35,931 nucleotides of DNA, from positions 1 to 35,931 of IMG/VR virus record IMGVR_UViG_3300017754_002644; one strand, written 5' to 3'. How positions within the stretch are numbered: the first letter of the stretch is position 1; each line of letters begins with the position of its first letter. A program made the translations under genes and the position numbers. This DNA is from a virus (lineage: Duplodnaviria > Caudoviricetes). Below the pieces are notes generated by a model that was not told the origin of the DNA, did no database searches, and saw nothing but the letters and a program-made list of their open reading frames with translations. Positions 9,174 through 31,050 of the stretch are shown here, in pieces.

Positions 9174-10700
9174 ATGGCACGAATCCCCATCCTTCAAAGC
9201 CCTGCGCAAATCAACACGGGCAATCAGACGGCGCGAGTCGCACAGCTTCCAGCCGTCACAAATGCCGCACTCGGGCAGGCGATTGGAGGCGTGGCAACGG
9301 TGGCGTTTGACATCAGCGAGAGAACAAAGCGCGTGCAAGATGTGAAAAATCTCACGACTGCCAGCCTAAAAATGCAGGAGGCTCAGTCACAGTTTGCTAA
9401 GTTTCAGATGGATCAACCCGACGAATCGAAGTGGCTGCCAGAGTGGGAATCCATCAAGACTCGCGTTCAGTCTGAGATTGCCGAAATGCCGCTGACTCCA
9501 GACGCTCGCAATCAGGCAACGGAGCGTTTCGGCATGTGGTCAATCAGCGGAACAACCAACGTCCAAGCGCAAAGCCTCAAACAGGCCGGAAGGAATGCCG
9601 CGCTTTCGGTTGAGAATGCCATTCAGATTGGGCGGCAAACTGGCGACTTCACAGCGGCTCGAATGGCAGCAAGTGATTACAAGTCTAGTATCCCCATGTC
9701 TAATGAGGAAAGGCAGTCGATTGATTTACAGATTCAAGAGGCTGAGCGCCAGTTTGCGGCCGAAGACTTCAAGGTAAAAATCGGCATGGCCCGTGACCGT
9801 TTCGATGGATTAGCCATGATGGACGCCGTTATGGAAGCGGAGAAAAAGGGCGCGATTACTCCGCAGGAAGTTAGGGCTTTTGAAGATGAATCGAAGCGGC
9901 TTGAAGCTGTCGGCACGATCAAACAGATTGCCGATGTTGACCCCATCATTGCCAAGGCAAAAATCAAAGCTGGAGAGTTCCCAGAGCTAACGCCGCAGGA
10001 AAAGGCCAGCGTTGAATCATACGCAGAAGGCGTTCAGCGTGATTTTCAGAATCGCGAGCGCTCAGAGTTTGCTGATTTTATCGTGAACGGTGGCAACGCT
10101 GACGATTACAAATTTAAGTGGAACCTGTCAGACGCAGAACAGGCAGAGCTACGACTTGCGGCAAAACGTCCCGTGATCGTGACAGCTGAACAAGCGGCAG
10201 TTAAGCGGCTCGAAATGGAGGCTAAGGTTGGCAAATACAACATGGACGCCGATCCAGACAGAAAGCAGATGATTGCCATATCTGCCGAACTGGACGCGCT
10301 CAAAAACGCGGTGCCTTATGCCTTCTCCGATCTTGGCACGGCGTGGGCAAACAAGACAAAAGGCAAAGGGCCGTCTCTTGTGGAAATGGACATCGCCGAC
10401 CATGACGATTACGTTCAGAAGCTTTACAAGCCAAAGATGGACGCTCTTCTTGAAAAGAACGGCAGCATTTCCACAGGCAAGGAAGCCGAGTTTCGCAGAC
10501 TTCAAAGCGAAGCTACCGACCTAAAGAAAAAGTATCGCGCTCAAATCGGCGACAATCCAACGCCAGAGCAGGCTCGCAAGACTTCACAAAATATCCTCAC
10601 GCTACCAACGGCAGAAAACGTCACGTCCTATTTTGACATGCTGGACGCGAATCCAATTTTGCCAGCTATTAACGCGCAACCGCAACCACTGAACCCATGA
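9174..10700 (+). CDS. Internal virion/ejection protein (gp15-like)
   Basis: 'MARIP' start, 508 aa all-helical, lies between the gp14-like gene and the giant ORF. Confidence 0.65.
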   Translation: MARIPILQSPAQINTGNQTARVAQLPAVTNAALGQAIGGVATVAFDISERTKRVQDVKNLTTASLKMQEAQSQFAKFQMDQPDESKWLPEWESIKTRVQSEIAEMPLTPDARNQATERFGMWSISGTTNVQAQSLKQAGRNAALSVENAIQIGRQTGDFTAARMAASDYKSSIPMSNEERQSIDLQIQEAERQFAAEDFKVKIGMARDRFDGLAMMDAVMEAEKKGAITPQEVRAFEDESKRLEAVGTIKQIADVDPIIAKAKIKAGEFPELTPQEKASVESYAEGVQRDFQNRERSEFADFIVNGGNADDYKFKWNLSDAEQAELRLAAKRPVIVTAEQAAVKRLEMEAKVGKYNMDADPDRKQMIAISAELDALKNAVPYAFSDLGTAWANKTKGKGPSLVEMDIADHDDYVQKLYKPKMDALLEKNGSISTGKEAEFRRLQSEATDLKKKYRAQIGDNPTPEQARKTSQNILTLPTAENVTSYFDMLDANPILPAINAQPQPLNP

Positions 10701-13700
10701 CTCCAGAGCAGATTCAAGAGAGAGAAAACCGACTGAGGAAAGCTTTTATTGATCGTGACTTTGGAGAGGCTGGGGCATCATTAGATGACTCGGCTTTTGC
10801 TGGCGTTGAAGATCGCGGCAAGCTCCTAATGTCTGGCGCGGTTGCGGGCTGGGCCGGTTCCATGATGGGGCAGCGCGTCAATCCAGCGTCTCCAGACTGG
10901 CAGGGAATCAAAGACGGCATTGCTCGCGGCTACTTCAAAAACCGTGAGGCTTCCAATGTTTCCGACGAGGATCTTTTCAGCAAGATCGCGGAAGACTACA
11001 AAGCGCAGGACGCACTGGCGGAGGCTGCCAGGAACGCGGCAGCGCGCGGCGAGTCGTGGCTTGGCAAGTTCCGCGAAGTTGAGCAATCAATGCCAAACGT
11101 GGCAGGCGGGCGGCAAGTGCCTTTCCTTGGACTGGCAAAAGAGACGCATGATAAATTCCGTGAAAAGATTCTGCCCTATCAATCCACAATTCGGAGCGTG
11201 GCAGAAAAGGCGAAGGCCATCGAAACGTCAGCGGAAGGAATGGACTGGTCAGGCATGGCGCAGGAGCTGATTCAGGTTCCCAAGGAATCGCGGCCTTTTG
11301 TGCTCGAAGCTATTTCGCGGCAGGCTACGGCAAACGTTGACGCGAACGCTGCCGAGAGGCTTGGCAAAGAGTTTGCGCGTGGGTTCGAGCGCTTCCTAGA
11401 CACTGCAATGTCGGGCTCTTACAACGTGCTTGCTGCTGCTGGTCAGTATTCAGAAATCCCGCTAACTCCCGAGACTACACAAGAGATTGAGGCACGCAAA
11501 GCGCGTGAATCACAGGACGCTGATTTGATGGACCTACGCGATGACATCCGCGACATCTCCACAGGCAAGCTGGCAAAGCTCGATGACGTGCGCGTGCTAG
11601 GCATGAACATCTCTGGCGCGGTTCGTAACGTGCCTATGACGATTGGCGCATTCATTCCTTACGCTGGCCCTGCGGCACTACTTGGCAGTTTCCAGCGCGA
11701 GACGGCAAACGAGTTGCGCAGGAGCAATCCAACGATGAGCCGCGCCGATGTGGAGCAGATTGCAACGCTCTCCGCGCCATTTCAGGCGGTGACTGAGGTT
11801 GTTTCGGATCGTCTGCTATTTGGTAGGCTTCCCAATCTGAAAAAGCTGTTCACTGCTCCCGTCTTTTCCGCCGGCGGGATTGCTGCGCAGTTCGCAGGCA
11901 GGACGGCAATCGGCACGACTACGGAGGTCACTGAGGAGCTAGCGCAAGGCGTGATTCCTCGCTTGGTTCAATCGCTTAAATCAGACGTGCCAGACGTTGA
12001 CTGGGACGGCTATTTCCAAGACTTCAAAGACCAGTCTCCCGAACTTCTGGCCACCATTCTTCCGATGGCGCTTTTTGGCGCAGGCGTGGGGCAAGTGTCG
12101 GATTATCGTGCATCCGTCCAGATGCTTAGAAATCCCGATGAGATGATGGCGGCAAAGATTCCAGAAGCGGAGGCTCGCAAGATCGCGGAGCTATCCGCGG
12201 CTGGAAAGATGCCCGAGGCCGAGTCGATGTTTCGGCAGGAGTTCAGAAAGGCTGCCACTAAAGGCGAGGCTCCGGCAGAAATGCGGGCGGCGGCACAGCG
12301 CGTCATTGCTGCAAATCAGGCACAGCGGCAGGTTGAAGAGGCAAACAACAAAGAAGCCTCACAAATTGGCGTTCGTGTGTTTCGTGACACTCAAGGCTGG
12401 AAGGTTGAAACGGCAGGTGGAAACGTGATTAATGCGGACTCGGCAGAAGCTGCTAGGCGCATTCGTGACGACATCCGCACGGCATCGACTGAATACGAGG
12501 CTGAGACGATGACAGCGCTTGTTGACGACATGGTTGCTCTACAGCCTCAGATGCGTGTGGAACTTCGTTCAGAGGTGGCGACGGCGACAAGTGAAGGAAT
12601 TGAGTTCACCGATCCAGTCACAGGAAAGACAACCAAAATCGGCGATGCCAAGAGCTTTCAAAACCTGCGAGACCAAGCGGAAGCTATCGGCGGCAATCAA
12701 ATTGAGTCTGCGCGTTTGATCCTTGGAGACAACTATTTAGAGTTTGGCGAAGGAATTGCCCGTGTTTTCCGGCGTTCTCGCGGGCCTGAGGCTGTGCCGC
12801 AAGCGATTACGGCAGCGCATGAAGTCATCGAAAGTTCGTTCCGGCGCGGGCTGCTGGCTGGGCAATGGACAGAAAATGATGCACGCAACGCTATCGGCTC
12901 GCTTCTTCCGGCGCTTGAATCCGGCATAATGAGGCTTGGCGCAAAGGCTACGGCTGAAGAAAAGCTCTGGCTTGATAATGCAAAGCGTGCCGTCGCTGAA
13001 GGCGATTCTAATCTTGTCCGTGAAGTCATCTCAGAAATGGGCGTTCGCACTTGGATAGGCCGCGACAGAGACGGCAACAAGACAGGCCTTCGACCCGGCA
13101 CGATTCTTCGCGCTCTTGACGCTGCGATTCTCCAAGAGAAATCACCCGAGAATGTGACTACATATCAGCGCTTGCGTGCATGGTTCAAAGCCGTTGGCGC
13201 ATACCTGAAGGGCGTCGTGGCAACTGCTAAAATCATCAGAGACGCAGAGCGAAACGGCACGATTGACGACTTCAGCGGCTTCCTAGACAAAGTGCTAGGA
13301 CTTCAAGAGGCGACACGGGAAGAGTCGGAGGTTAAGCAGGAAGTGCAGAACATGGCGTTTTCACTGGCTCCTGAAATGCAGTCACGCGCACAGCCTCAAA
13401 CAATCGCGCCAGTCGTGGAGATGCCAGACGGCGCTCGTCTTGTTGGGCCTTCTACGTTCTCAATTACTGCCTACCACGGCACGCCGCACAAGGTGGACAA
13501 GTTCAGCATGGCCAAGATTGGCACAGGCGAAGGCGTGCAGGCTTATGGCTGGGGACTTTATTTTGCGGCGGCGCGTATGGTGGCTCTTGATTACAAGAAC
13601 AAGCTCGGCAAGTCGCCCTCTCAACTACGAGCAGCCAAAATAAGCGTTCAATCATGGGAACGCGAGGTAGATGTAAATCCTTCACAGGCCAATAAAGACC

Positions 13701-16700
13701 AACTTCGCATGGCTAAGGCCGCCCTAGCAGAGATGGAAGCCAAACAAGGCAACCTCTACACCGTCGAACTGCTGCCGGATGAGGACGAGTTCCTCGATTG
13801 GGACAAGCCGCTGAGCGAGCAGAGTGAGAAGGTGAAGTCGGCGTTGGCTGACTTTGCTCCAAACCTAAATCAAACTGGCGGCGACTGGTATCAGTCTAAT
13901 CAATCCATCACTTCCCCAAATCCGAAAGAGACATCTGAATGGCTCGCCTCCCTCGGCATCCCCGGCATCAAATACCTTGACGCTGGCAGTCGTGGCGCTG
14001 GCGACGGCACGAGCAACTACGTCATCTTCGATGAGTCGCTTGTGAAGATCCTTGAAGAGAACGGCAAGCCCGTTGGCTCGACTTTCTCCCTAGCTCCTGC
14101 GTTAAATCCAGATGAATACGCAGTCCAAGCGTTTCACGGCACTGATTCCAAAAAGTTTAATCAATTCGACATTCTCAAGTTGGGCAAAGGCTCAGGCAAT
14201 GAGGGATTGTTCTCTGCTGGCTTTTACTTCTCGCCAAACGAGGGAGACGCTAAAGGTTATGGCAAGCATCTTGTTTCGGTTGGTTTAAAGGTTAAGCGCC
14301 CGCTTGTGGTGCCCGACTCTTTCCCGGTTATGATGCGCGGAGATGATAGCGCCGAGTATTGGGAAGGGTTCAACAATCAGATGCGCGAAGCTTTGCGTTC
14401 TGTTTTTGAGGCCAACGGATTTAATGACGTGGCGCGAATTAACCGCGTCAAAATGGATGAGTCATTCATTGGCAGTTTTACCCGTTCGTATGAAGCGCTT
14501 ACCGGGATGAATTTGTCACCATCGAAAGCTGCCGAGGTTTCCGCGACGCTGATTCAACGCGCTGGATTCGATGCGGTTTACGCAAAGGACATGGACGAAA
14601 CGACTGAAATTGTCATTTATGATCCAGCCAATATCCTGATTAAAAATTGGAACGGCAAAAAGATGGGCTCAACGTTCAGCCTATCCCCACAATCCGGCAT
14701 CGACATCGTAAGCGATACGCTGGAAAGCTGGCAGGATGTCTTTGACAAGGCGGCAAAACGCAATCCTGCGCGGGCAATGGCAATCCGTGACCTTGCTCAG
14801 CAGCGGATAAATAGGCTCGGTGAAATGTGGGCCGCTGACAGGTGGACGGCTAAGGGCGACAAGATCCGCGCAGTTGTAGAGAAACGCACGAAAGCGAGCC
14901 TAGACACAGAGCAAAGCTTCCGCGAGACGCTTGAACTTGACGCTATCCTTGCGGAAAAAGGGATGACTACGGAAGAAGCGCAGCGCTCCAAAGATTCCAA
15001 GGATTACGAGGCGTGGCAGCGCTTCCAAGAATCTAAGGCTCTCATCTTGAGCAAGGGCGAATTCACGGAAGAAGAGGCTAACAAGATGGCCGAGTTTTCA
15101 TCTTCTGCATGGCGCAAGAATTTTGTCTCCACCGTCCGTGATGCGGTTAAAGAAGCAAAGGCCCGCGTTGCTCCATGGCGCGAGGAAGCCGACGACATGC
15201 AAGCCGATGATTGGAGTCCTCGCGAATCCCTCGTTCGTGACATGCGCGTTCTCAACGTAGCGCTCTCGGCATTCCCTCCTGAAGTTCGTGCTAAGGTCAC
15301 GGGCGGCAGCATGGTGAAACTGGCAGGGCTGGCAACTGAACGCGCTCGTTATAAAGCCATTCAAACGGCTTTAGAAAAGGCCATCGTGGAAACTGAGCGC
15401 TTCATGCGCAAGGAATACACTGAGCAGATTGACGATTTGCTCGACACCTACCGATCACAAAAGGATTCAAGCGGGCGCATCTCCGGCAAGCTGCCGTCTC
15501 AATACACGGAGCTTGTGGACTACGCTTACCGCATCCGTGAGATGGACATAGAAGCGCAGGCAACCGAGGGCGACGGGCTAGAGAAGTCTTTGGAGAAATC
15601 CGAGTCTGACGAGGAAACACAGCGCATTCTCACAAAGATGGGCATCCTTCGCCTTTTCGAGACGTGGGACACCAAAGACAGCACAGCGATGGCGGCGGCT
15701 AGCGAGTGGCTATCTGACACCATCGAAAGCGGCAAGCTGGGCCGGAAGCTCCTGGATGAAGATCGAAAGGCGATGCTTGATGACTTCCGCGCCACTGCCA
15801 AAAAGGATGCAGTTCCAGAGGGCAAGATTAGCAAGGTGGACGTGGACAACGAGACGAATCAGATTCGTTTCAAAGTGTTCCGTCGCGCATGGCAGGGGCT
15901 TAACGGGATGCTTGATTCAGCCATCCACACTCTGGGCCAGCGGCTTGAATTGGTATTCGGTGAGGATTCCAAGATCACCGACCACTTCATCACGTCATTC
16001 ATTCGCGCTGCCAACGAATCAAACGACATCAAGCGCGGCGTCAATGCCAAGTATCACGACATGCTTTCAGTCGTGTTTAACTCGCGTTCACGGCTGGCAC
16101 ACGCTCGCGGCATTGGGCAGATGCAGAAGGTCAAAGCCTCCGGCATTATGATCACTGAGGGCCGCAAGGTAAAGGAAGTAAAGCTGGACATCGAGACGCT
16201 AACCAAGCTGGCAGACGGTGACATGACAGCGGAGGCCGCTGGACTCCGACAAGATCAGGTTGACGCCGCTCTCGAAGAATGGGCTGCATCCGAACGCAAG
16301 CGCACTGTCACGGTTGAAGTCGTGGAGAACGCAGGCGAGCAGAAAGAGCGTCAGATGACAGAACTGCAAGGCGTCCAGTGGTGGCTATGGAGCCGCCAGG
16401 ATGCCAGCCGTAAACAGATGGAGCGCGACGGATGGACAGAAGAGAGCTTCAAGCAACTCGACGCCTTCCTATCGCCAGAGGCTAAAGCCCTGGGTGAATG
16501 GATTGCCAAAGGCTACGACGACGCAGCACGTTTGATTGATCCGGTTTATCGTCGTCTCTTCAATGCTCCGCTGCCACGCGTGAAAAACTACGCGCCAATC
16601 TATCGCAACCGCTCCGGCGATGCTTCCGTGATGGATCTGGACGCCTCCGACATTTCAAGCGGACTGGCGGCAGGCTTTACAAAGTCCCGCGTGAATACTG

Positions 16701-18025
16701 TTTCACCTCTGGCTGAAATGGACGCTGTGACGGTGATGCTTACCCATTGGGAAAACGTGGCGCATTGGGTGACTCATGCGGAGGCTGTGAGAGACGCTAA
16801 AGCCGTTCTCTTGGATCGCGACGTAATGACCGCCATTAAGCAGTCATCTGGCAACGTGTCGGCCAACTCTATCAAGCAACGCATCGCGGCCATTGAGTCG
16901 CAGGGGACAAATGCAGCACGCGAGCTCGTTGACCTATCGCGCATGTGGAGATGGATCATGCAATACCGGGCATTTAAGGGGCTAGCGTTCCGTATGTCTC
17001 CGGTTATCAAGCAGACTCCGGCGCTACTCAATCCGCTACTTGCTGACGTTCCGGCGCATTCCTACACAATGGGCCTAGCAAGGGCGTTTTATGATCCCGC
17101 AGCGTTTGGCCGCGATGTCGCAGAAATGTTCAAATCTGACACCATTATGCGACGCATTGAAGGCGGTTTCTCTGCTGAGGCTAGAATTGCCATGCAGGGT
17201 GAAGGCGCGGTTGGCTCCGTGTCGCTAGCTTGGATGCAGCGCGGCATGATGCCGATGGCTTGGACTGATGCAGGATGGACAGCTTTAGGCGCTGCCGTGT
17301 CATTTGACTACTACAAGCGCGGCTACATCTCGGAAGGGATGAATGAAGCCATGGCAAACGCAGCCGCAACCAAGCGACTGGAAAAGATGATTGCCGTTTC
17401 TGCGCAGCCTTCCGACATCGTGAACCGTTCACTTGTGGAGGCATCATCCAACAACTTCATGCGCTCGCTTTGGATGTTTGCCAGTGACCAAAGAAAGGCG
17501 CTTGGCATCGAAGTAACGGCTCTGAAAAAGCTTTTGTCCGGCAAGTCCAAAAACAAGGCGATGGACGTGCAGCGCATCATTGTTGCTCACGTAGCGCAAG
17601 CCGCAATGTCCCAGCTTATGGCGTCTTGGATGGCCTCGCTTATCGGTGACGACGACGACAAAGATCGTGAATGGAGCCGCGAACAGTGGACTCTTTCGCT
17701 GGCTCTTGGCCCGATCAACGGGTTATTCGTGTTTGGCCGACTTATTGATATGGCGGGTCGTCGCATCCTTGGGCTGCGAATTTTCCCCGGTGGCAATCTT
17801 GTCGAAAAAGCCGCTGACGATCTTGTTCGCGGCGGAAAATCAATGGACGAGCTTTTTAATCCTGACGATCCAGAGGATTTTATTAATGCCCTTGATGCGC
17901 TGGCCGTTGGAGCTTCCGGTGTTATGACTCTTGGCATTGGCCCTCAAGCTGGAGTTGTCGATGTGACGGCTAACTTAGTCCGTGAAGGTAACAAGATCAT
18001 CAAGGCGGCGACTGAGGAGGAGTAA
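10697..18025 (+). CDS. Giant ejection protein (gp16 position) / large polyvalent protein with two ART-like domains and a degenerate metallopeptidase-like motif
   Basis: 2442 aa. Domains 'AYHGT..IGTGEG..YGWGLYF..NYVIFD' and 'AFHGT..GFYFS..GFDAVY..EIVIYDP'; 'AHEVIE' at 12815-12832; repeated (S/A)TFSL linkers. Confidence 0.8.
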   Translation: MTPEQIQERENRLRKAFIDRDFGEAGASLDDSAFAGVEDRGKLLMSGAVAGWAGSMMGQRVNPASPDWQGIKDGIARGYFKNREASNVSDEDLFSKIAEDYKAQDALAEAARNAAARGESWLGKFREVEQSMPNVAGGRQVPFLGLAKETHDKFREKILPYQSTIRSVAEKAKAIETSAEGMDWSGMAQELIQVPKESRPFVLEAISRQATANVDANAAERLGKEFARGFERFLDTAMSGSYNVLAAAGQYSEIPLTPETTQEIEARKARESQDADLMDLRDDIRDISTGKLAKLDDVRVLGMNISGAVRNVPMTIGAFIPYAGPAALLGSFQRETANELRRSNPTMSRADVEQIATLSAPFQAVTEVVSDRLLFGRLPNLKKLFTAPVFSAGGIAAQFAGRTAIGTTTEVTEELAQGVIPRLVQSLKSDVPDVDWDGYFQDFKDQSPELLATILPMALFGAGVGQVSDYRASVQMLRNPDEMMAAKIPEAEARKIAELSAAGKMPEAESMFRQEFRKAATKGEAPAEMRAAAQRVIAANQAQRQVEEANNKEASQIGVRVFRDTQGWKVETAGGNVINADSAEAARRIRDDIRTASTEYEAETMTALVDDMVALQPQMRVELRSEVATATSEGIEFTDPVTGKTTKIGDAKSFQNLRDQAEAIGGNQIESARLILGDNYLEFGEGIARVFRRSRGPEAVPQAITAAHEVIESSFRRGLLAGQWTENDARNAIGSLLPALESGIMRLGAKATAEEKLWLDNAKRAVAEGDSNLVREVISEMGVRTWIGRDRDGNKTGLRPGTILRALDAAILQEKSPENVTTYQRLRAWFKAVGAYLKGVVATAKIIRDAERNGTIDDFSGFLDKVLGLQEATREESEVKQEVQNMAFSLAPEMQSRAQPQTIAPVVEMPDGARLVGPSTFSITAYHGTPHKVDKFSMAKIGTGEGVQAYGWGLYFAAARMVALDYKNKLGKSPSQLRAAKISVQSWEREVDVNPSQANKDQLRMAKAALAEMEAKQGNLYTVELLPDEDEFLDWDKPLSEQSEKVKSALADFAPNLNQTGGDWYQSNQSITSPNPKETSEWLASLGIPGIKYLDAGSRGAGDGTSNYVIFDESLVKILEENGKPVGSTFSLAPALNPDEYAVQAFHGTDSKKFNQFDILKLGKGSGNEGLFSAGFYFSPNEGDAKGYGKHLVSVGLKVKRPLVVPDSFPVMMRGDDSAEYWEGFNNQMREALRSVFEANGFNDVARINRVKMDESFIGSFTRSYEALTGMNLSPSKAAEVSATLIQRAGFDAVYAKDMDETTEIVIYDPANILIKNWNGKKMGSTFSLSPQSGIDIVSDTLESWQDVFDKAAKRNPARAMAIRDLAQQRINRLGEMWAADRWTAKGDKIRAVVEKRTKASLDTEQSFRETLELDAILAEKGMTTEEAQRSKDSKDYEAWQRFQESKALILSKGEFTEEEANKMAEFSSSAWRKNFVSTVRDAVKEAKARVAPWREEADDMQADDWSPRESLVRDMRVLNVALSAFPPEVRAKVTGGSMVKLAGLATERARYKAIQTALEKAIVETERFMRKEYTEQIDDLLDTYRSQKDSSGRISGKLPSQYTELVDYAYRIREMDIEAQATEGDGLEKSLEKSESDEETQRILTKMGILRLFETWDTKDSTAMAAASEWLSDTIESGKLGRKLLDEDRKAMLDDFRATAKKDAVPEGKISKVDVDNETNQIRFKVFRRAWQGLNGMLDSAIHTLGQRLELVFGEDSKITDHFITSFIRAANESNDIKRGVNAKYHDMLSVVFNSRSRLAHARGIGQMQKVKASGIMITEGRKVKEVKLDIETLTKLADGDMTAEAAGLRQDQVDAALEEWAASERKRTVTVEVVENAGEQKERQMTELQGVQWWLWSRQDASRKQMERDGWTEESFKQLDAFLSPEAKALGEWIAKGYDDAARLIDPVYRRLFNAPLPRVKNYAPIYRNRSGDASVMDLDASDISSGLAAGFTKSRVNTVSPLAEMDAVTVMLTHWENVAHWVTHAEAVRDAKAVLLDRDVMTAIKQSSGNVSANSIKQRIAAIESQGTNAARELVDLSRMWRWIMQYRAFKGLAFRMSPVIKQTPALLNPLLADVPAHSYTMGLARAFYDPAAFGRDVAEMFKSDTIMRRIEGGFSAEARIAMQGEGAVGSVSLAWMQRGMMPMAWTDAGWTALGAAVSFDYYKRGYISEGMNEAMANAAATKRLEKMIAVSAQPSDIVNRSLVEASSNNFMRSLWMFASDQRKALGIEVTALKKLLSGKSKNKAMDVQRIIVAHVAQAAMSQLMASWMASLIGDDDDKDREWSREQWTLSLALGPINGLFVFGRLIDMAGRRILGLRIFPGGNLVEKAADDLVRGGKSMDELFNPDDPEDFINALDALAVGASGVMTLGIGPQAGVVDVTANLVREGNKIIKAATEEE

Positions 18026-18029
18026 TTAT

Positions 18030-18392
18030 TCAGAGGGCTTGAGCGGTTTCATTAGAGCATAGCAATCCCGTTGCCGGTAACTGCTAAGCGTAGATTATTC
18101 GTCGGGAATCGGGAACACCTTCGCACTCTTGAGTCTTCCCGCTCGGCTGTCTCAGTAAACACGGGTCAAACGATTCAAGGGCAACCCATCCTTTCGGATG
18201 CGACTTTTGCACGGCTGATTCTGCTTCCACCGTGCGCCGAATCCTTCGCTAGCCCGAGTTGCCCGCGCAGGGACTCTACCAGCATTTCAGCCCGAAGGAG
18301 CGGACCAACAAAAAGACCGACTCGGGCAAGGAGTCGGTCTTAGTGCGGTTCATCGCGTTTCGGACGGATCAACGCCTTGCCCGCGTGAACCT
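18030..18392 (-). ncRNA. Putative structured non-coding RNA: kissing-loop attenuator (18310-18392) followed by a ~260-nt multi-stem domain (18030-18295)
   Basis: Minus strand shows GAAA and GCAA GNRA tetraloops, several stems with G-U pairs, and an 11-bp terminator whose loop is complementary to an upstream hairpin loop. No convincing long ORF. Confidence 0.65.
18310..18341 (-). terminator. Rho-independent terminator within the RNA element
   Basis: Minus strand AAGACCGACTC-CTTGCCC-GAGTCGGTCTT-TTT. Confidence 0.75.
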
Positions 18393-18440
18393 AATTGTTC
18401 TGTATCCTCCGCTATGCCGCAGAGGTTGCAAGGGGAATTT

Positions 18441-18602
18441 TCATCCGTGCGGGAGTTCTGAGAAGTTGCAGCCGAGTTGGTGGCAGAAAGCGAAATCATT
18501 GACAGTTTCGCGCTCACGCAATGATGCCTGTGCAACATCTACAAAAGCAACTGACAAATCATCGGGCGCTATTGGCTCGTAGTCTGCGGCGTCGATGGTC
18601 AT
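18441..18602 (-). CDS. Small hypothetical protein (53 aa, MTIDAADYEPIAPDD...), below the ORF-track cutoff
   Basis: ATG overlaps the stop of the 18599-18988 gene (ATGA); open to TGA at 18441. Confidence 0.5.
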   Translation of the reverse strand: MTIDAADYEPIAPDDLSVAFVDVAQASLRERETVNDFAFCHQLGCNFSELPHG

Positions 18603-18988
18603 GGCAGGATTCCTTTCGTTTTGAGGTAGGCGAGGCAGCGTTGGCGGGCGGTGGCGGTGACGAGTTTAAAGACGCTCCACTCAAGCAACCACGCTGGAGA
18701 ACGTGGCGAGACTAAACCAACCTCTTCATTGAGTTGGTAGAAGTATTCTTGTTGCTCTTCATCCGTCAGCGTTGCCTCAAACTCCGCGCAGGCGTTGAGG
18801 TCTTTGGGGTAGTTAGGGACTGAGGGAGATCCCTCATAGGGCTCTGGCATTTCTGGATGATAGTAACGCCCGGCGAAGCCTCCTTGCGAACTTATCCATC
18901 CATAAAGACCTTGGATGTCCGTTGGCTCCCTGGTCCACCCTCTCGCCTCCGCCACCTTGATTCTGATTTCTTCGTCTGTGAGTGTCAT
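18599..18988 (-). CDS. Phage accessory protein (ABA-sandwich/NinX-like)
   Basis: 'TDEEI..KVAE..GW ... PNYPKDLNAC ... ATARQRCLAYL' pattern, common in phage early regions. Confidence 0.55.
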   Translation of the reverse strand: MTLTDEEIRIKVAEARGWTREPTDIQGLYGWISSQGGFAGRYYHPEMPEPYEGSPSVPNYPKDLNACAEFEATLTDEEQQEYFYQLNEEVGLVSPRSPAWLLEWSVFKLVTATARQRCLAYLKTKGILP

Positions 18989-19251
18989 GGCTTGATGAAG
19001 GGTTGGAGTTTGTCGGCAATCTCGTTGCAGAGTTTGTCGTGTGCGGAGGCATCTGGAGCGCCATCAGCGCAGCCTTCGGTGAGATAGTAGATGTCCTTGA
19101 TCGCCTCGCGCATTGCTTCCAGCTCCTCCCTCGCCTCGTCCCGCTCACGTTCGAGTTTGCGGGCGAAATTTGCATGAACTCCCGGCCCAGCGTAAGGCCA
19201 TGTTACCCATGCCGCGTTCGTCTCCGGTGTTGGTCTTTGTGTCGATTCCAT
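18985..19251 (-). CDS. Phage hypothetical coiled-coil protein
   Basis: 'TPETNAA..FARKLERERDEAR'; doubled CATCATCAC leader. Confidence 0.65.
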   Translation of the reverse strand: MESTQRPTPETNAAWVTWPYAGPGVHANFARKLERERDEAREELEAMREAIKDIYYLTEGCADGAPDASAHDKLCNEIADKLQPFIKP

Positions 19252-19318
19252 AGTGATGATGTGATGATGAAGCGGATAATCCGCCCCATAGACTCCCTGA
19301 TTTCCTAAAAAACGTCAA
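19252..19318 (-). promoter_or_regulatory. Promoter and leader of minus-strand island 1
   Basis: TTGACG-17 nt-GAGTCT, then hairpin GCGGA-TTA-TCCGC, then CATCATCACATCATCAC-T-ATG. Confidence 0.6.
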
Positions 19319-28851: not shown

Positions 28852-31050
28852 ATGGAAAACATCGACTACGATCAATTTATCACACAGAAAACCAAACGCT
28901 TTGAATCTCACGGATTTGAGCCGCTGCCACTAATAGTGCCAGCGTTTGACTGGCAAGCGCACGTTATTCAATGGGCAGTTCGCAAGGGACGCGCTGCATT
29001 ATTCGAAGATTGCGGACTTGGTAAGACTCTCCAACAGCTTGAGTGGGCATCGCAAGTGTGCCGTCATTCTGGCGGCAGCGTGATCGTTCTTACGCCGCTT
29101 GCGGTTGCTCACCAAACAGCCAAGGAAGCATCCAAGTTTGGACTCGTCGCAACCGTGGCAGAGTCTCAAACGGATGTTACATCGCCAGGCATCTGGATCA
29201 CTAATTACGAGAAGCTTGAGCACTTTGACGCAGCCGCATTTGTTGGCGTCGTTCTTGATGAATCATCCATCCTGAAAAACTTCACGGGCAAGATGCGCAA
29301 GATGCTGACTGAAAAATTCAGTCAGACTCCGTATCGGCTTTGCTGCACGGCTACACCGTCACCAAACGACTATACTGAGTTCGGCCAGCACGCTGACTTC
29401 CTCGGCGTTTGCTCACCTGCGCAGATGCTTGCCACGTTCTTCCTGAATGACACATTTAACACTGGCGACTGGCGATTGAAAAAGCACGCCGAGTCGGAGT
29501 TCTGGGCGTGGCTTGCATCGTGGGCGGCGTGCGTTTCTAAACCTTCCGACATCGGTTTTTCAGATGATGGCTATATTCTGCCACCGCTGAATATGCGCAG
29601 CATCACGGTAGATGTGGATTGGACCGAAGGCGCAAAAGAGGATGAGCTTTTTCGCTCTCCAACGCTTAGCGCCACAACGATGCACGAAGAGATGCGGATG
29701 ACTTCGCAAGCTCGCGCTGAGAAAGTGGCGGGGTTGGTTAATGGATCGCCTGAATCGTGGATTGTCTGGTGTAATACGAATGACGAATCCGAGAGGCTGG
29801 CGGCATTGATTCCTGATGGGGTGGAAATTCAAGGCTCTGATAGCGCCAAGAAAAAAGAACAAGCCGCAGACGATTTTGTGAGTGGTAAGATTCGCGTCCT
29901 TATTAGTAAAAGCGGCATCTTTGGATTTGGCATGAATTGGCAGCACTGCTGGAACGTGGCATTTGTTGGTTTGTCCTATTCGTTTGAGTCATTTTACCAA
30001 GCGCTCCGCAGGTCTTACCGCTTCGGCCAAACGCACGAAGTAAACGCCTATATTGTCAACGCAGCCACCGAGGGAGCCATCATCAAGAACGTCACAGAGA
30101 AGATCAACCGGCACAAAGCGATGCAGGAGAAAATGAAGCTCGCGGCATCAGCATTCCAGTCACAACAGAAAAAGCTCACTATGAAAACAGACATCACCAC
30201 CGCAGTCGGCAACGGCTGGCAACTCCATCACGGCGACTGTGTTCGCGTCATTCGTGAAATTGAAAGCGAGTCCATTGACTTCTCGGTATTCTCTCCGCCA
30301 TTTGCAGACTTGTTCACATACTCGAACGACCTTCAGGATATGGGCAACTGCTCCGACATGGAGGAGTTCATGGGGCATTTCGGCATCCTTATTGACGAGC
30401 TTTACAGGGTCATGAAGGAAGGGCGCATCGTGGCGGTGCATTGCGTCGATCTGCTTTCCACCATGAGCAAACATGGAAAGATCGAGTTCCAAGACTTCTC
30501 TGGCGAGATCAAGAACGCCTTTCGCGCTCGCGGGTTTCTCTTTCACTGCCCGATAACCATCTGGAAGTCTCCAGTCACTGAGATGCAACGCACGAAAGCG
30601 CACGGGCTGCTTTACAAAACTCTCAAGTCTGACTCGTGCAAATCCCGCGTTGGTTGCGCTGACTACCTGCTCGCATTCCGCAAGCCGGGAGAGAATCAGG
30701 AGCCGGTCACGAAAGACCCGAACAAGTATCCTGTGGACTGGTGGCAGGAAGTTGCATCGCCGGTTTGGATGACGGTCGATCAAGGGCGCGTCTTGAATAA
30801 AGACGGGGCGCGAGACAATAACGACGAGCGCCACATCTGCCCGCTCCAACTCGATGTGATTGAGCGCGCAGTTGAGCTTTGGAGCAATCCCGGCGACTTG
30901 GTTTACTCACCGTTTACTGGCATTGGCAGCGAGGGTGTGGGCGCTTTGACTTTGGATCGCCGGTTTATTGGCTCTGAACTCAAGGAGTCGTATTTTAATC
31001 AAGCGCGGCAGAATCTTGCGAACGCGAAAGCTCAACTCACGCTCTTCTAA
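28852..31050 (+). CDS. SF2 (SNF2-like) helicase fused to a beta-class N4-C/N6-A DNA methyltransferase
   Basis: Helicase motifs 'CGLGKT', 'LDES', 'TATPSPN' and 'QALRRSYRFGQ'; MTase motifs 'HGDC', 'FSPPF' (IV) and 'SPFTGIGSEG' (I). Confidence 0.88.
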   Translation: MENIDYDQFITQKTKRFESHGFEPLPLIVPAFDWQAHVIQWAVRKGRAALFEDCGLGKTLQQLEWASQVCRHSGGSVIVLTPLAVAHQTAKEASKFGLVATVAESQTDVTSPGIWITNYEKLEHFDAAAFVGVVLDESSILKNFTGKMRKMLTEKFSQTPYRLCCTATPSPNDYTEFGQHADFLGVCSPAQMLATFFLNDTFNTGDWRLKKHAESEFWAWLASWAACVSKPSDIGFSDDGYILPPLNMRSITVDVDWTEGAKEDELFRSPTLSATTMHEEMRMTSQARAEKVAGLVNGSPESWIVWCNTNDESERLAALIPDGVEIQGSDSAKKKEQAADDFVSGKIRVLISKSGIFGFGMNWQHCWNVAFVGLSYSFESFYQALRRSYRFGQTHEVNAYIVNAATEGAIIKNVTEKINRHKAMQEKMKLAASAFQSQQKKLTMKTDITTAVGNGWQLHHGDCVRVIREIESESIDFSVFSPPFADLFTYSNDLQDMGNCSDMEEFMGHFGILIDELYRVMKEGRIVAVHCVDLLSTMSKHGKIEFQDFSGEIKNAFRARGFLFHCPITIWKSPVTEMQRTKAHGLLYKTLKSDSCKSRVGCADYLLAFRKPGENQEPVTKDPNKYPVDWWQEVASPVWMTVDQGRVLNKDGARDNNDERHICPLQLDVIERAVELWSNPGDLVYSPFTGIGSEGVGALTLDRRFIGSELKESYFNQARQNLANAKAQLTLF

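Follow-up and report, generated by a model that had tools for sequence, protein, structure and literature searches.

A conserved two-pseudoknot RNA of freshwater podoviruses behind an attenuator-like leader

The locus and its leader

The window, that is, the whole 35,931-nt stretch of DNA analysed here, is a linear virus record that is 93% complete and carries portal/adaptor, capsid, tail, internal virion, Bet, helicase, and DnaB genes in a podovirus-like layout. The cultured capsids nearest to its own are those of HTVC010P-like pelagiphages (~36% identity), which are too distant for naming the host of the window phage, and neither the protein atlas nor homolog searches yielded one. The public runs that contain this region are for the most part freshwater DNA runs. 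The RNA locus lies between the stop of a giant 2442-aa gene (ORF 10697–18025, plus strand) and a series of small minus-strand ORFs. The first-pass annotation had proposed a structured minus-strand RNA at 18030–18295 that runs up to this stop. The region does abut the giant gene's stop, and all the strings named in it sit at their coordinates on the minus strand. A structured RNA is indeed present, but its limits had to be redrawn, as the interval joined two separable modules and left out the leader. We found three modules: a promoter with a ~90-nt leader, a variable middle, and a core at 18240–18026. The accessory ORFs upstream (18440–19260, minus strand) are mosaic, with many joints with replaced segments among contigs, and no PHROG or Pfam family could be assigned to any of these small ORFs. 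Compared with its counterpart in L003, the 2442-aa virion protein diverges in the middle part but has 86% identity over the C-terminal 400 aa, which suggests that it may have exchangeable internal domains.

A sigma70-type promoter is predicted at 18404–18431 on the minus strand, with the −35 element TTGCAA at 18431–18426, a 16-nt spacer, and the −10 element GAGGAT at 18409–18404. Although the window's own box falls under the threshold of our simple scan, a TTGnnn-16/17-nAnnnT box was observed 28–44 nt upstream of 30 of 33 leaders, compared with 39 of 965 control windows. The first leader domain (18347–18395, minus strand) was defined from an alignment of the 33 leaders, its fold, and a match to model R2 (E 2e-15); its closing helix, 18391–18386/18352–18347, encloses a variable, phage-specific segment A (18383–18375). 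It is followed by a predicted intrinsic-terminator-like hairpin of 11 bp with a U tract (18307–18341, minus strand), whose loop A′ (18331–18323) is complementary to segment A, 40–55 nt upstream of it. Across 39 leaders with 28 distinct loops, among which two mis-picked rows remain, the A:A′ duplex averaged −15.3 kcal/mol for a leader's own pair versus −8.0 for foreign pairs (sd 3.1). The terminator-like hairpin precedes the core in 38 of 43 loci; L169 is a mis-pick, and no such hairpin was detected in the other four, in two of them owing to missing or rearranged sequence. The leader would thus resemble an attenuator, and the earlier proposal of a structured RNA downstream of one is upheld to the extent of this prediction. 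Since the terminator fold has the lower energy (−39.9, versus −31.4 when A:A′ pairing is enforced), read-through would need kinetics or a factor. Alternatively, the A:A′ contact could be of the kissing type and form within a small, terminated RNA instead of serving antitermination.

The variable middle of the window starts with a small hairpin with a pyrimidine-rich loop (18289–18306, minus strand), seen in the fold and judged by eye, uncounted, to be alike in homologs. It is followed by a conserved hairpin with an internal loop and a CA bulge (18248–18283, minus strand), which covaries: over 14 distinct sequences it is 97.6% paired, 6 of its 12 pairs are compensatory, and 0 of 500 shuffles reach its score. 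The same hairpin also stands before different cargo in L017, making it a separable module. The distance from terminator to core is ~70–85 nt in most loci and 227–338 nt in some. Other loci have in their middle another hairpin, a tRNA-Met (L095, 14 nt ahead of the core), or tRNA-like pieces carried on long stems; long-stem inserts occur in 7 of 43 loci, five with a T-loop-like motif. Two apparent recombinants place such a tRNA-like long-stem insert upstream of the promoter (L126) or in the position of the core 5′ domain (L144).

A covarying minus-strand core

Pattern scans recovered 36 distinct full-length homologs of the core from related podoviruses, down to 51% identity to the window. The exact-pattern scans, which overlap heavily, returned true relatives in 5 of 9 metagenome stretches and in 18 of 32, 36 of 39, and 43 of 46 viral stretches. 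L065, L071, and L072 are near-identical to the window and provide no independent evidence. Collapsing duplicates left 37 distinct cores, and removal of the truncated L065 gave the 36 sequences of alignment A2, with core lengths of 214–254 nt (~215 nt in the window). These cores group in clades and amount to ~22 effective sequences at 90% identity, so cell counts overstate the number of independent events. Other searches were less productive. The first viral patterns, based on the middle hairpin, picked up 40, 1, and 13 stretches, only one of which was a true relative, and a scan of genome contigs gave seven matches, all unrelated as judged by context. BLASTn against phages and plasmids returned nothing or chance matches of 23–28 nt only. 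The core model had no match in 151 genomes of the phylum of G016 (a Planctomycetota record) or in five other bacterial genomes, both searches being run with no positive control. In X19, the one true RNA run, available as contigs that cannot show absence, nothing covered the element on the window or L160, and run X20 is probably DNA.

The alignment supports a minus-strand structure of 50 pairs with two pseudoknots, in which 97.2% of 1800 cells (36 sequences) are paired, 27 of the 50 pairs are compensatory, and the covariation score is 0.435. None of 500 shuffles reached the paired fraction, the compensatory count, or the covariation score, while the pair-type count was matched by 15 of 500. Partners slid out of register paired in only 29–38% of cells, a comparison that favours the proposed structure because it was built from the same 36 sequences. 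A screen of all column pairs gave too much noise to be of use when left uncorrected; with corrected mutual information, Watson-Crick helix pairs rank at the top.

The 5′ domain of the core (18129–18240, minus strand), delimited by the covariation alignment and by independent changes on the tree, contains two hairpins (18235–18209 and 18200–18187) and the helices 18178–18172/18135–18129 and 18165–18161/18142–18138; the nested helices of the fold show 4–7 independent changes at their best pairs. The helices 18240–18236/18147–18143 (100% paired, ~2 events) and 18204–18202/18151–18149 (100% paired, one compensatory event, nine sequences) together form one pseudoknot that crosses two long helices. 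In the second pseudoknot, a hairpin loop pairs with a downstream strand (18224–18221/18184–18181; 97% paired, ~2 changes per side). Invariant bases are dense around the stacked short helices and both pseudoknots. The 3′ domain (18026–18128, minus strand) comprises a conserved linker, a short hairpin, a GCAA-capped hairpin at 18086–18060, and a conserved unpaired tail; its helices (8–10) are less well supported, being 88–94% paired with fewer compensatory pairs.

The homologs also bear on strand and coding potential. Among the 1800 cells there are 120 G-U but 13 A-C combinations, and the GAAA hairpin keeps a GNRA loop in 21 of 36 copies, as expected from the minus-strand orientation that the first-pass annotation had deduced from wobbles and tetraloops. 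No reading frame is shared, each of the six being stop-free in at most 4 of 36 sequences. Together, these observations establish a structured minus-strand RNA. Folding energy, which had been suggested as a check, is marginal alone: the minus strand has a z of −1.65, a value reached by 9 of 200 shuffles, and the plus strand one of −0.91; for 18026–18397, z is −2.28, with 1 of 100 shuffles as good. Several local helices drawn from the window persist in the covarying structure, namely GCACGG/CCGUGC, the CAUCC-GAAA-GGAUG hairpin, and the 3′ GCAA hairpin (18086–18060). The long-range helices of that earlier structure all fail in the homologs. CGGC/GUCG and GAGCGG/CCGCUC have no compensatory pairs and are 83.4% paired, the shuffle level. 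The 9-bp helix GGGCAACUC/GGGUUGCCC is complete (9 of 9 pairs) in the window's own type alone, with 6–8 of 9 in the remaining 17 of 18 rows that have the motif. For the supposed closing helix, the duplex between the middle and the 3′ tail is about as good with foreign as with own partners (−13.2 and −14.0, sd 4.0, 36 rows).

Three of the top ten covarying column pairs proved to be identical, not complementary, and belong to a direct repeat. The motif at 18100–18095 recurs at 18031–18026, adjoining the giant gene's stop codon (both copies on the minus strand). The first five letters of the two copies agree in 33 of 36 sequences, and on average 5.5 of 6 letters are identical within a sequence versus 3.6 between sequences (maximum 4.3 in 5000 trials). 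The copies change together on the tree, with at least seven changes of state. No strand complementary to the repeat was found at a shared place within the element or in the 450 nt upstream, and the window holds a single other loose match, at 28975. The repeat period is 64–77 nt and a multiple of three in 6 of 36 sequences. The idea of a never-ending ORF was rejected, as the period is not tied to three. The segment between the copies is present in the DNA of all 36 cores. In the simplest reading of these sequences, the copies would be two binding or reaction sites.

Genomic slots and alternative cargo

The core follows the giant virion gene in the window, L066, and L067; elsewhere, it is flanked by scaffold and capsid genes or has portal/terminase genes nearby, and in these three identified slots it is on the strand opposite to the virion genes. 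The first suggestions, of a function connected with the giant gene or with an origin, are therefore unsupported. In L003, where the end of the giant protein is 86% identical, four ORFs fill the window's slot, and a contig of run X3 has 330 other letters after the giant gene. The core model matched none of five other records, two of them complete. Among complete relatives, the 100%-complete G011 is without the core, which the same model detects in the window, and has other RNA-like cargo behind one of its leaders. The presence of the leader before other cargo and the absence of the core from a complete relative indicate that the core is a swappable accessory. A sense ORF of at least 40 aa, of many unrelated kinds, starts within 50 nt downstream of the core in 21 of 43 loci; the window has none within that distance. 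With no fixed partner gene, and no such ORF in the window, action in trans is favoured.

The leader has a wider distribution. A leader-only scan returned 22 stretches, of which 12 had the core, six were true leaders without it, and four were chance matches. The six core-less leaders, L017, and one G011 leader precede hairpin-rich, non-coding-looking sequences of several types, and no Rfam match was found for the other cargo that was scanned. G011 has two leaders with different A/A′ pairs, each complementary to itself, and one stands directly before a protein ORF. The leader is thus not linked to this RNA alone; its occurrence before other RNA-like cargo and a protein ORF marks it as a general cis module, and the different pairs of the two G011 leaders point to pairing in cis. 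The leader upstream of the protein ORF, with its own complementary loop pair (L221:1500–1620, at G011:36585), is a candidate for a new attenuator family in its own right.

The alternative cargo falls into several groups. A second cargo of ~200 nt behind the same leader is nearly identical in L206:3086–3400 and L219:1590–1870 (both plus strand). It shows compensatory-looking changes in its 3′ hairpin and has no Rfam match in L206; the ORF behind it is of HNH type in L206 and nuclease-like in L219. A third group (L207:3086–3330, L218:2528–2770, L213:3086–3300, and L201:3086–3380, all plus strand) ends in a long purine/pyrimidine hairpin, followed in L213 by an HNH ORF. Two further types occur in L200:1147–1470 (plus strand) and L017:900–1545 (minus strand); the latter, from a complete phage of 71.6 kb, has more than 600 nt of hairpin-rich non-coding sequence that holds a minimal tRNA-like piece (acceptor-like stem and T arm) on a long stem. 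That other cargo RNAs share the 3′ domain of the core was unsupported, with best profile scores of 2–6 bits. A small ORF family, nuclease-like in look, recurs in the same cassette slots (L003:5692–6084, minus; L179:1655–1987, minus; L153:3155–3397, plus; L219:1866–2200, plus), with a weak HSDR_N match in L153 only.

Relation to known RNAs and possible roles

The first-pass annotation could not assign the RNA to a known family, and the window indeed has no match at the gathering threshold of Rfam 15, its sole match being a chance microRNA on the terminator (E 5.7). Scans of 12 homolog loci returned only one tRNA, and 6 + 9 further loci gave only chance-level matches below threshold and outside the core. 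Individual models were also negative: GOLLD (RF02032; 0 of 5 records at E ≤ 10), ROOL (RF03087; 0 of 5, with no positive control, all-family scans being negative too), raiA (RF03072; 0 of 5, with no end-closing helix supported), tmRNA (ARAGORN negative, and RF00023 0 of 5 with working controls; no conserved tag frame), group I intron (RF00028; 0 of 6, the core being intergenic), RNase P RNA (RF00010; 0 of 6 with working controls), and the Cripavirus IGR IRES (RF00458; 0 of 6, with no control above the cut-off). Resemblances to tmRNA, group I introns, RNase P, IGR IRES, and raiA were rejected on these grounds. As to retron/DRT-type ncRNAs, no reverse transcriptase was seen among 45 window ORFs scanned or 12 neighbour representatives, and a repeat period that is a multiple of three in only 6 of 36 sequences speaks against a repeat-to-repeat open frame. 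Against HEARO/OMEGA-type systems with a cognate HNH gene, an HNH signal was present in only 1 of 10 core-adjacent ORFs scanned. We found no description of this RNA in the literature searched, a scope with most subscription journals outside it; IMG/VR intergenic regions have been mined for candidates of 29–151 nt, according to PMC10690425, and that collection may already include parts of the leader or core without naming them. The RNA is a real structured family of phages, apparently undescribed.

This phage RNA is closest in kind to GOLLD-type RNAs and outside every family tested. As described in PMC12286853 and its preprint, GOLLD is a phage-borne structured ncRNA with a conserved 3′ part, a less conserved 5′ part, and a linker that sometimes carries tRNAs, a variable linker comparable to the one with tRNA-Met in L095. 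Unlike GOLLD, the core is ~215 nt instead of 400–800 nt, matches no GOLLD model, and has a terminator-bearing leader ahead that is common to other cargo. Multiple pseudoknots are shared with ROOL and with the raiA motif RNA, which is also similar in size (163–253 nt, two pseudoknots; PMC12968392), but in raiA P1 joins the 5′ and 3′ ends, and such a closing helix is not supported here. The leader recalls the seqA–seqC attenuation of the P4 CI RNA, as outlined in PMC4825925, in having internal complementary segments and predicted control by premature termination. It differs in that no downstream seqC-like copy covaries (L067 keeps the window's downstream 9-nt copy with a different A/A′), two leaders of one genome carry different pairs, and the gated cargo is predicted often to be an RNA. 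Theta ribozymes are likewise reported to lie downstream of phage tRNAs in some members (PMC10879173), but the present core is far larger than a minimal HDV-like ribozyme, has another helix order, and has a tRNA in a minority of loci, set off by a paired spacer.

Our preferred reading, which we put at roughly 0.4, is that of a conserved two-pseudoknot ncRNA in a swappable freshwater-podovirus cassette, likely acting early and in trans as a decoy for a host RNA-binding protein or nuclease. We infer early transcription, gated read-through, processing, and trans action as follows. Host RNA polymerase would start near 18397, and the leader would attenuate transcription; pairing of A with A′ would take 1–4 bases of the terminator 5′ arm, block the terminator, and allow read-through into the cargo. 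Processing at the middle hairpin, or at the tRNA-like insert, may release the core. The compact 5′ domain would make the RNA stable, while recognition may fall to the repeat copies of the 3′ domain, both of which are unpaired and phage-specific, so that the RNA could act in trans, early in infection, on a host RNA-binding protein or nuclease. Neutralisation of a host protein by a phage RNA has a precedent in pseudo-ToxI of phage PhiTE (PMC12926258), which has a short repeated motif and would work by mimicry; the core has no tandem array and no Rfam antitoxin match, only two short repeat copies with a large pseudoknotted domain. Against the decoy, no target emerged and, with a best cultured capsid match of ~36%, no host could be named; no RNA run covers the element in contig data, and one of the pseudoknot helices has just a single compensatory event behind it. 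The two repeat copies could just as well be the places where a ribozyme reacts: its pseudoknotted 5′ domain would cleave or ligate RNA there, or at the tRNA-like insert ahead of the core, and so free or circularise the 64–77-nt segment between the copies. A new ribozyme would fit the crowding of invariant bases around the two pseudoknots and the short stacked helices, the two sites kept identical within each phage, and the tRNA-Met that precedes the L095 core by 14 nt. We nevertheless regard it as doubtful, given no match to group I, RNase P, or any Rfam ribozyme model, a repeat without a guide strand, long-stem inserts in only 7 of 43 loci, and an inter-repeat segment missing from the DNA in 0 of 36 cores.

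The remaining readings each account for part of the data. Ribosome binding, as a structured translation starter for the gene behind or as a ribosome sponge, draws on the 21 of 43 loci in which a sense ORF begins no more than 50 nt past the 3′ end, the tRNA-like inserts, and the ribosome pull-down reported for GOLLD in PMC12286853. It appears quite unlikely, because the core is kept without a downstream ORF in the window and many others, matches neither the tmRNA nor the cripavirus IRES model (no control above cut-off for the latter), and has no conserved tag frame. A selfish cassette, in which the RNA is scaffold or hitch-hiker of a small HNH nuclease spreading among intergenic slots, would fit the use of at least three slots and the HNH-like ORFs after the core in L166 (below cut-off) and after other cargo, with signals above cut-off in L206 and L213 and a weak one in L200. 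With a signal in only 1 of 10 core-adjacent ORFs scanned, none beside the window core, and no variable guide segment at a fixed place, we consider it improbable. That the element works by transcription itself, damping late structural genes by convergent or antisense transcription, agrees with its strand in the three identified slots, but such interference would need no covarying two-pseudoknot fold and the neighbouring late gene varies by slot, leaving little in its favour. It would be more surprising still if the RNA were built into the virion or packaging motor as a structural component, oligomerising via its complementary leader loops; the loops, the position among virion genes, and the cages that GOLLD and ROOL form via kissing loops (PMC12286853 and its preprint) bring it to mind, yet the core is missing from a complete relative and the leader also precedes a protein gene.

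Alongside the decoy reading, we tentatively envisage a broader RNA cargo system, in which a promoter-attenuator module keyed by a phage-specific loop pair would drive several unrelated RNAs of ~200 nt that are swapped like anti-defence genes. The core would then be a new catalytic or decoy class whose co-evolving repeats encode target specificity. GOLLD and ROOL are large pseudoknotted phage RNAs with known structures whose function is not known. The new family is smaller, and offers a covariation-supported fold, 36 natural variants, sharp boundaries, and specificity variants in its repeat types and leader loop pairs, so that self-cleavage, pull-down, and cryo-EM tests are direct. One leader before several interchangeable RNA cargoes suggests that phages carry accessory RNAs as they carry accessory proteins, a layer that would escape protein-centred annotation.
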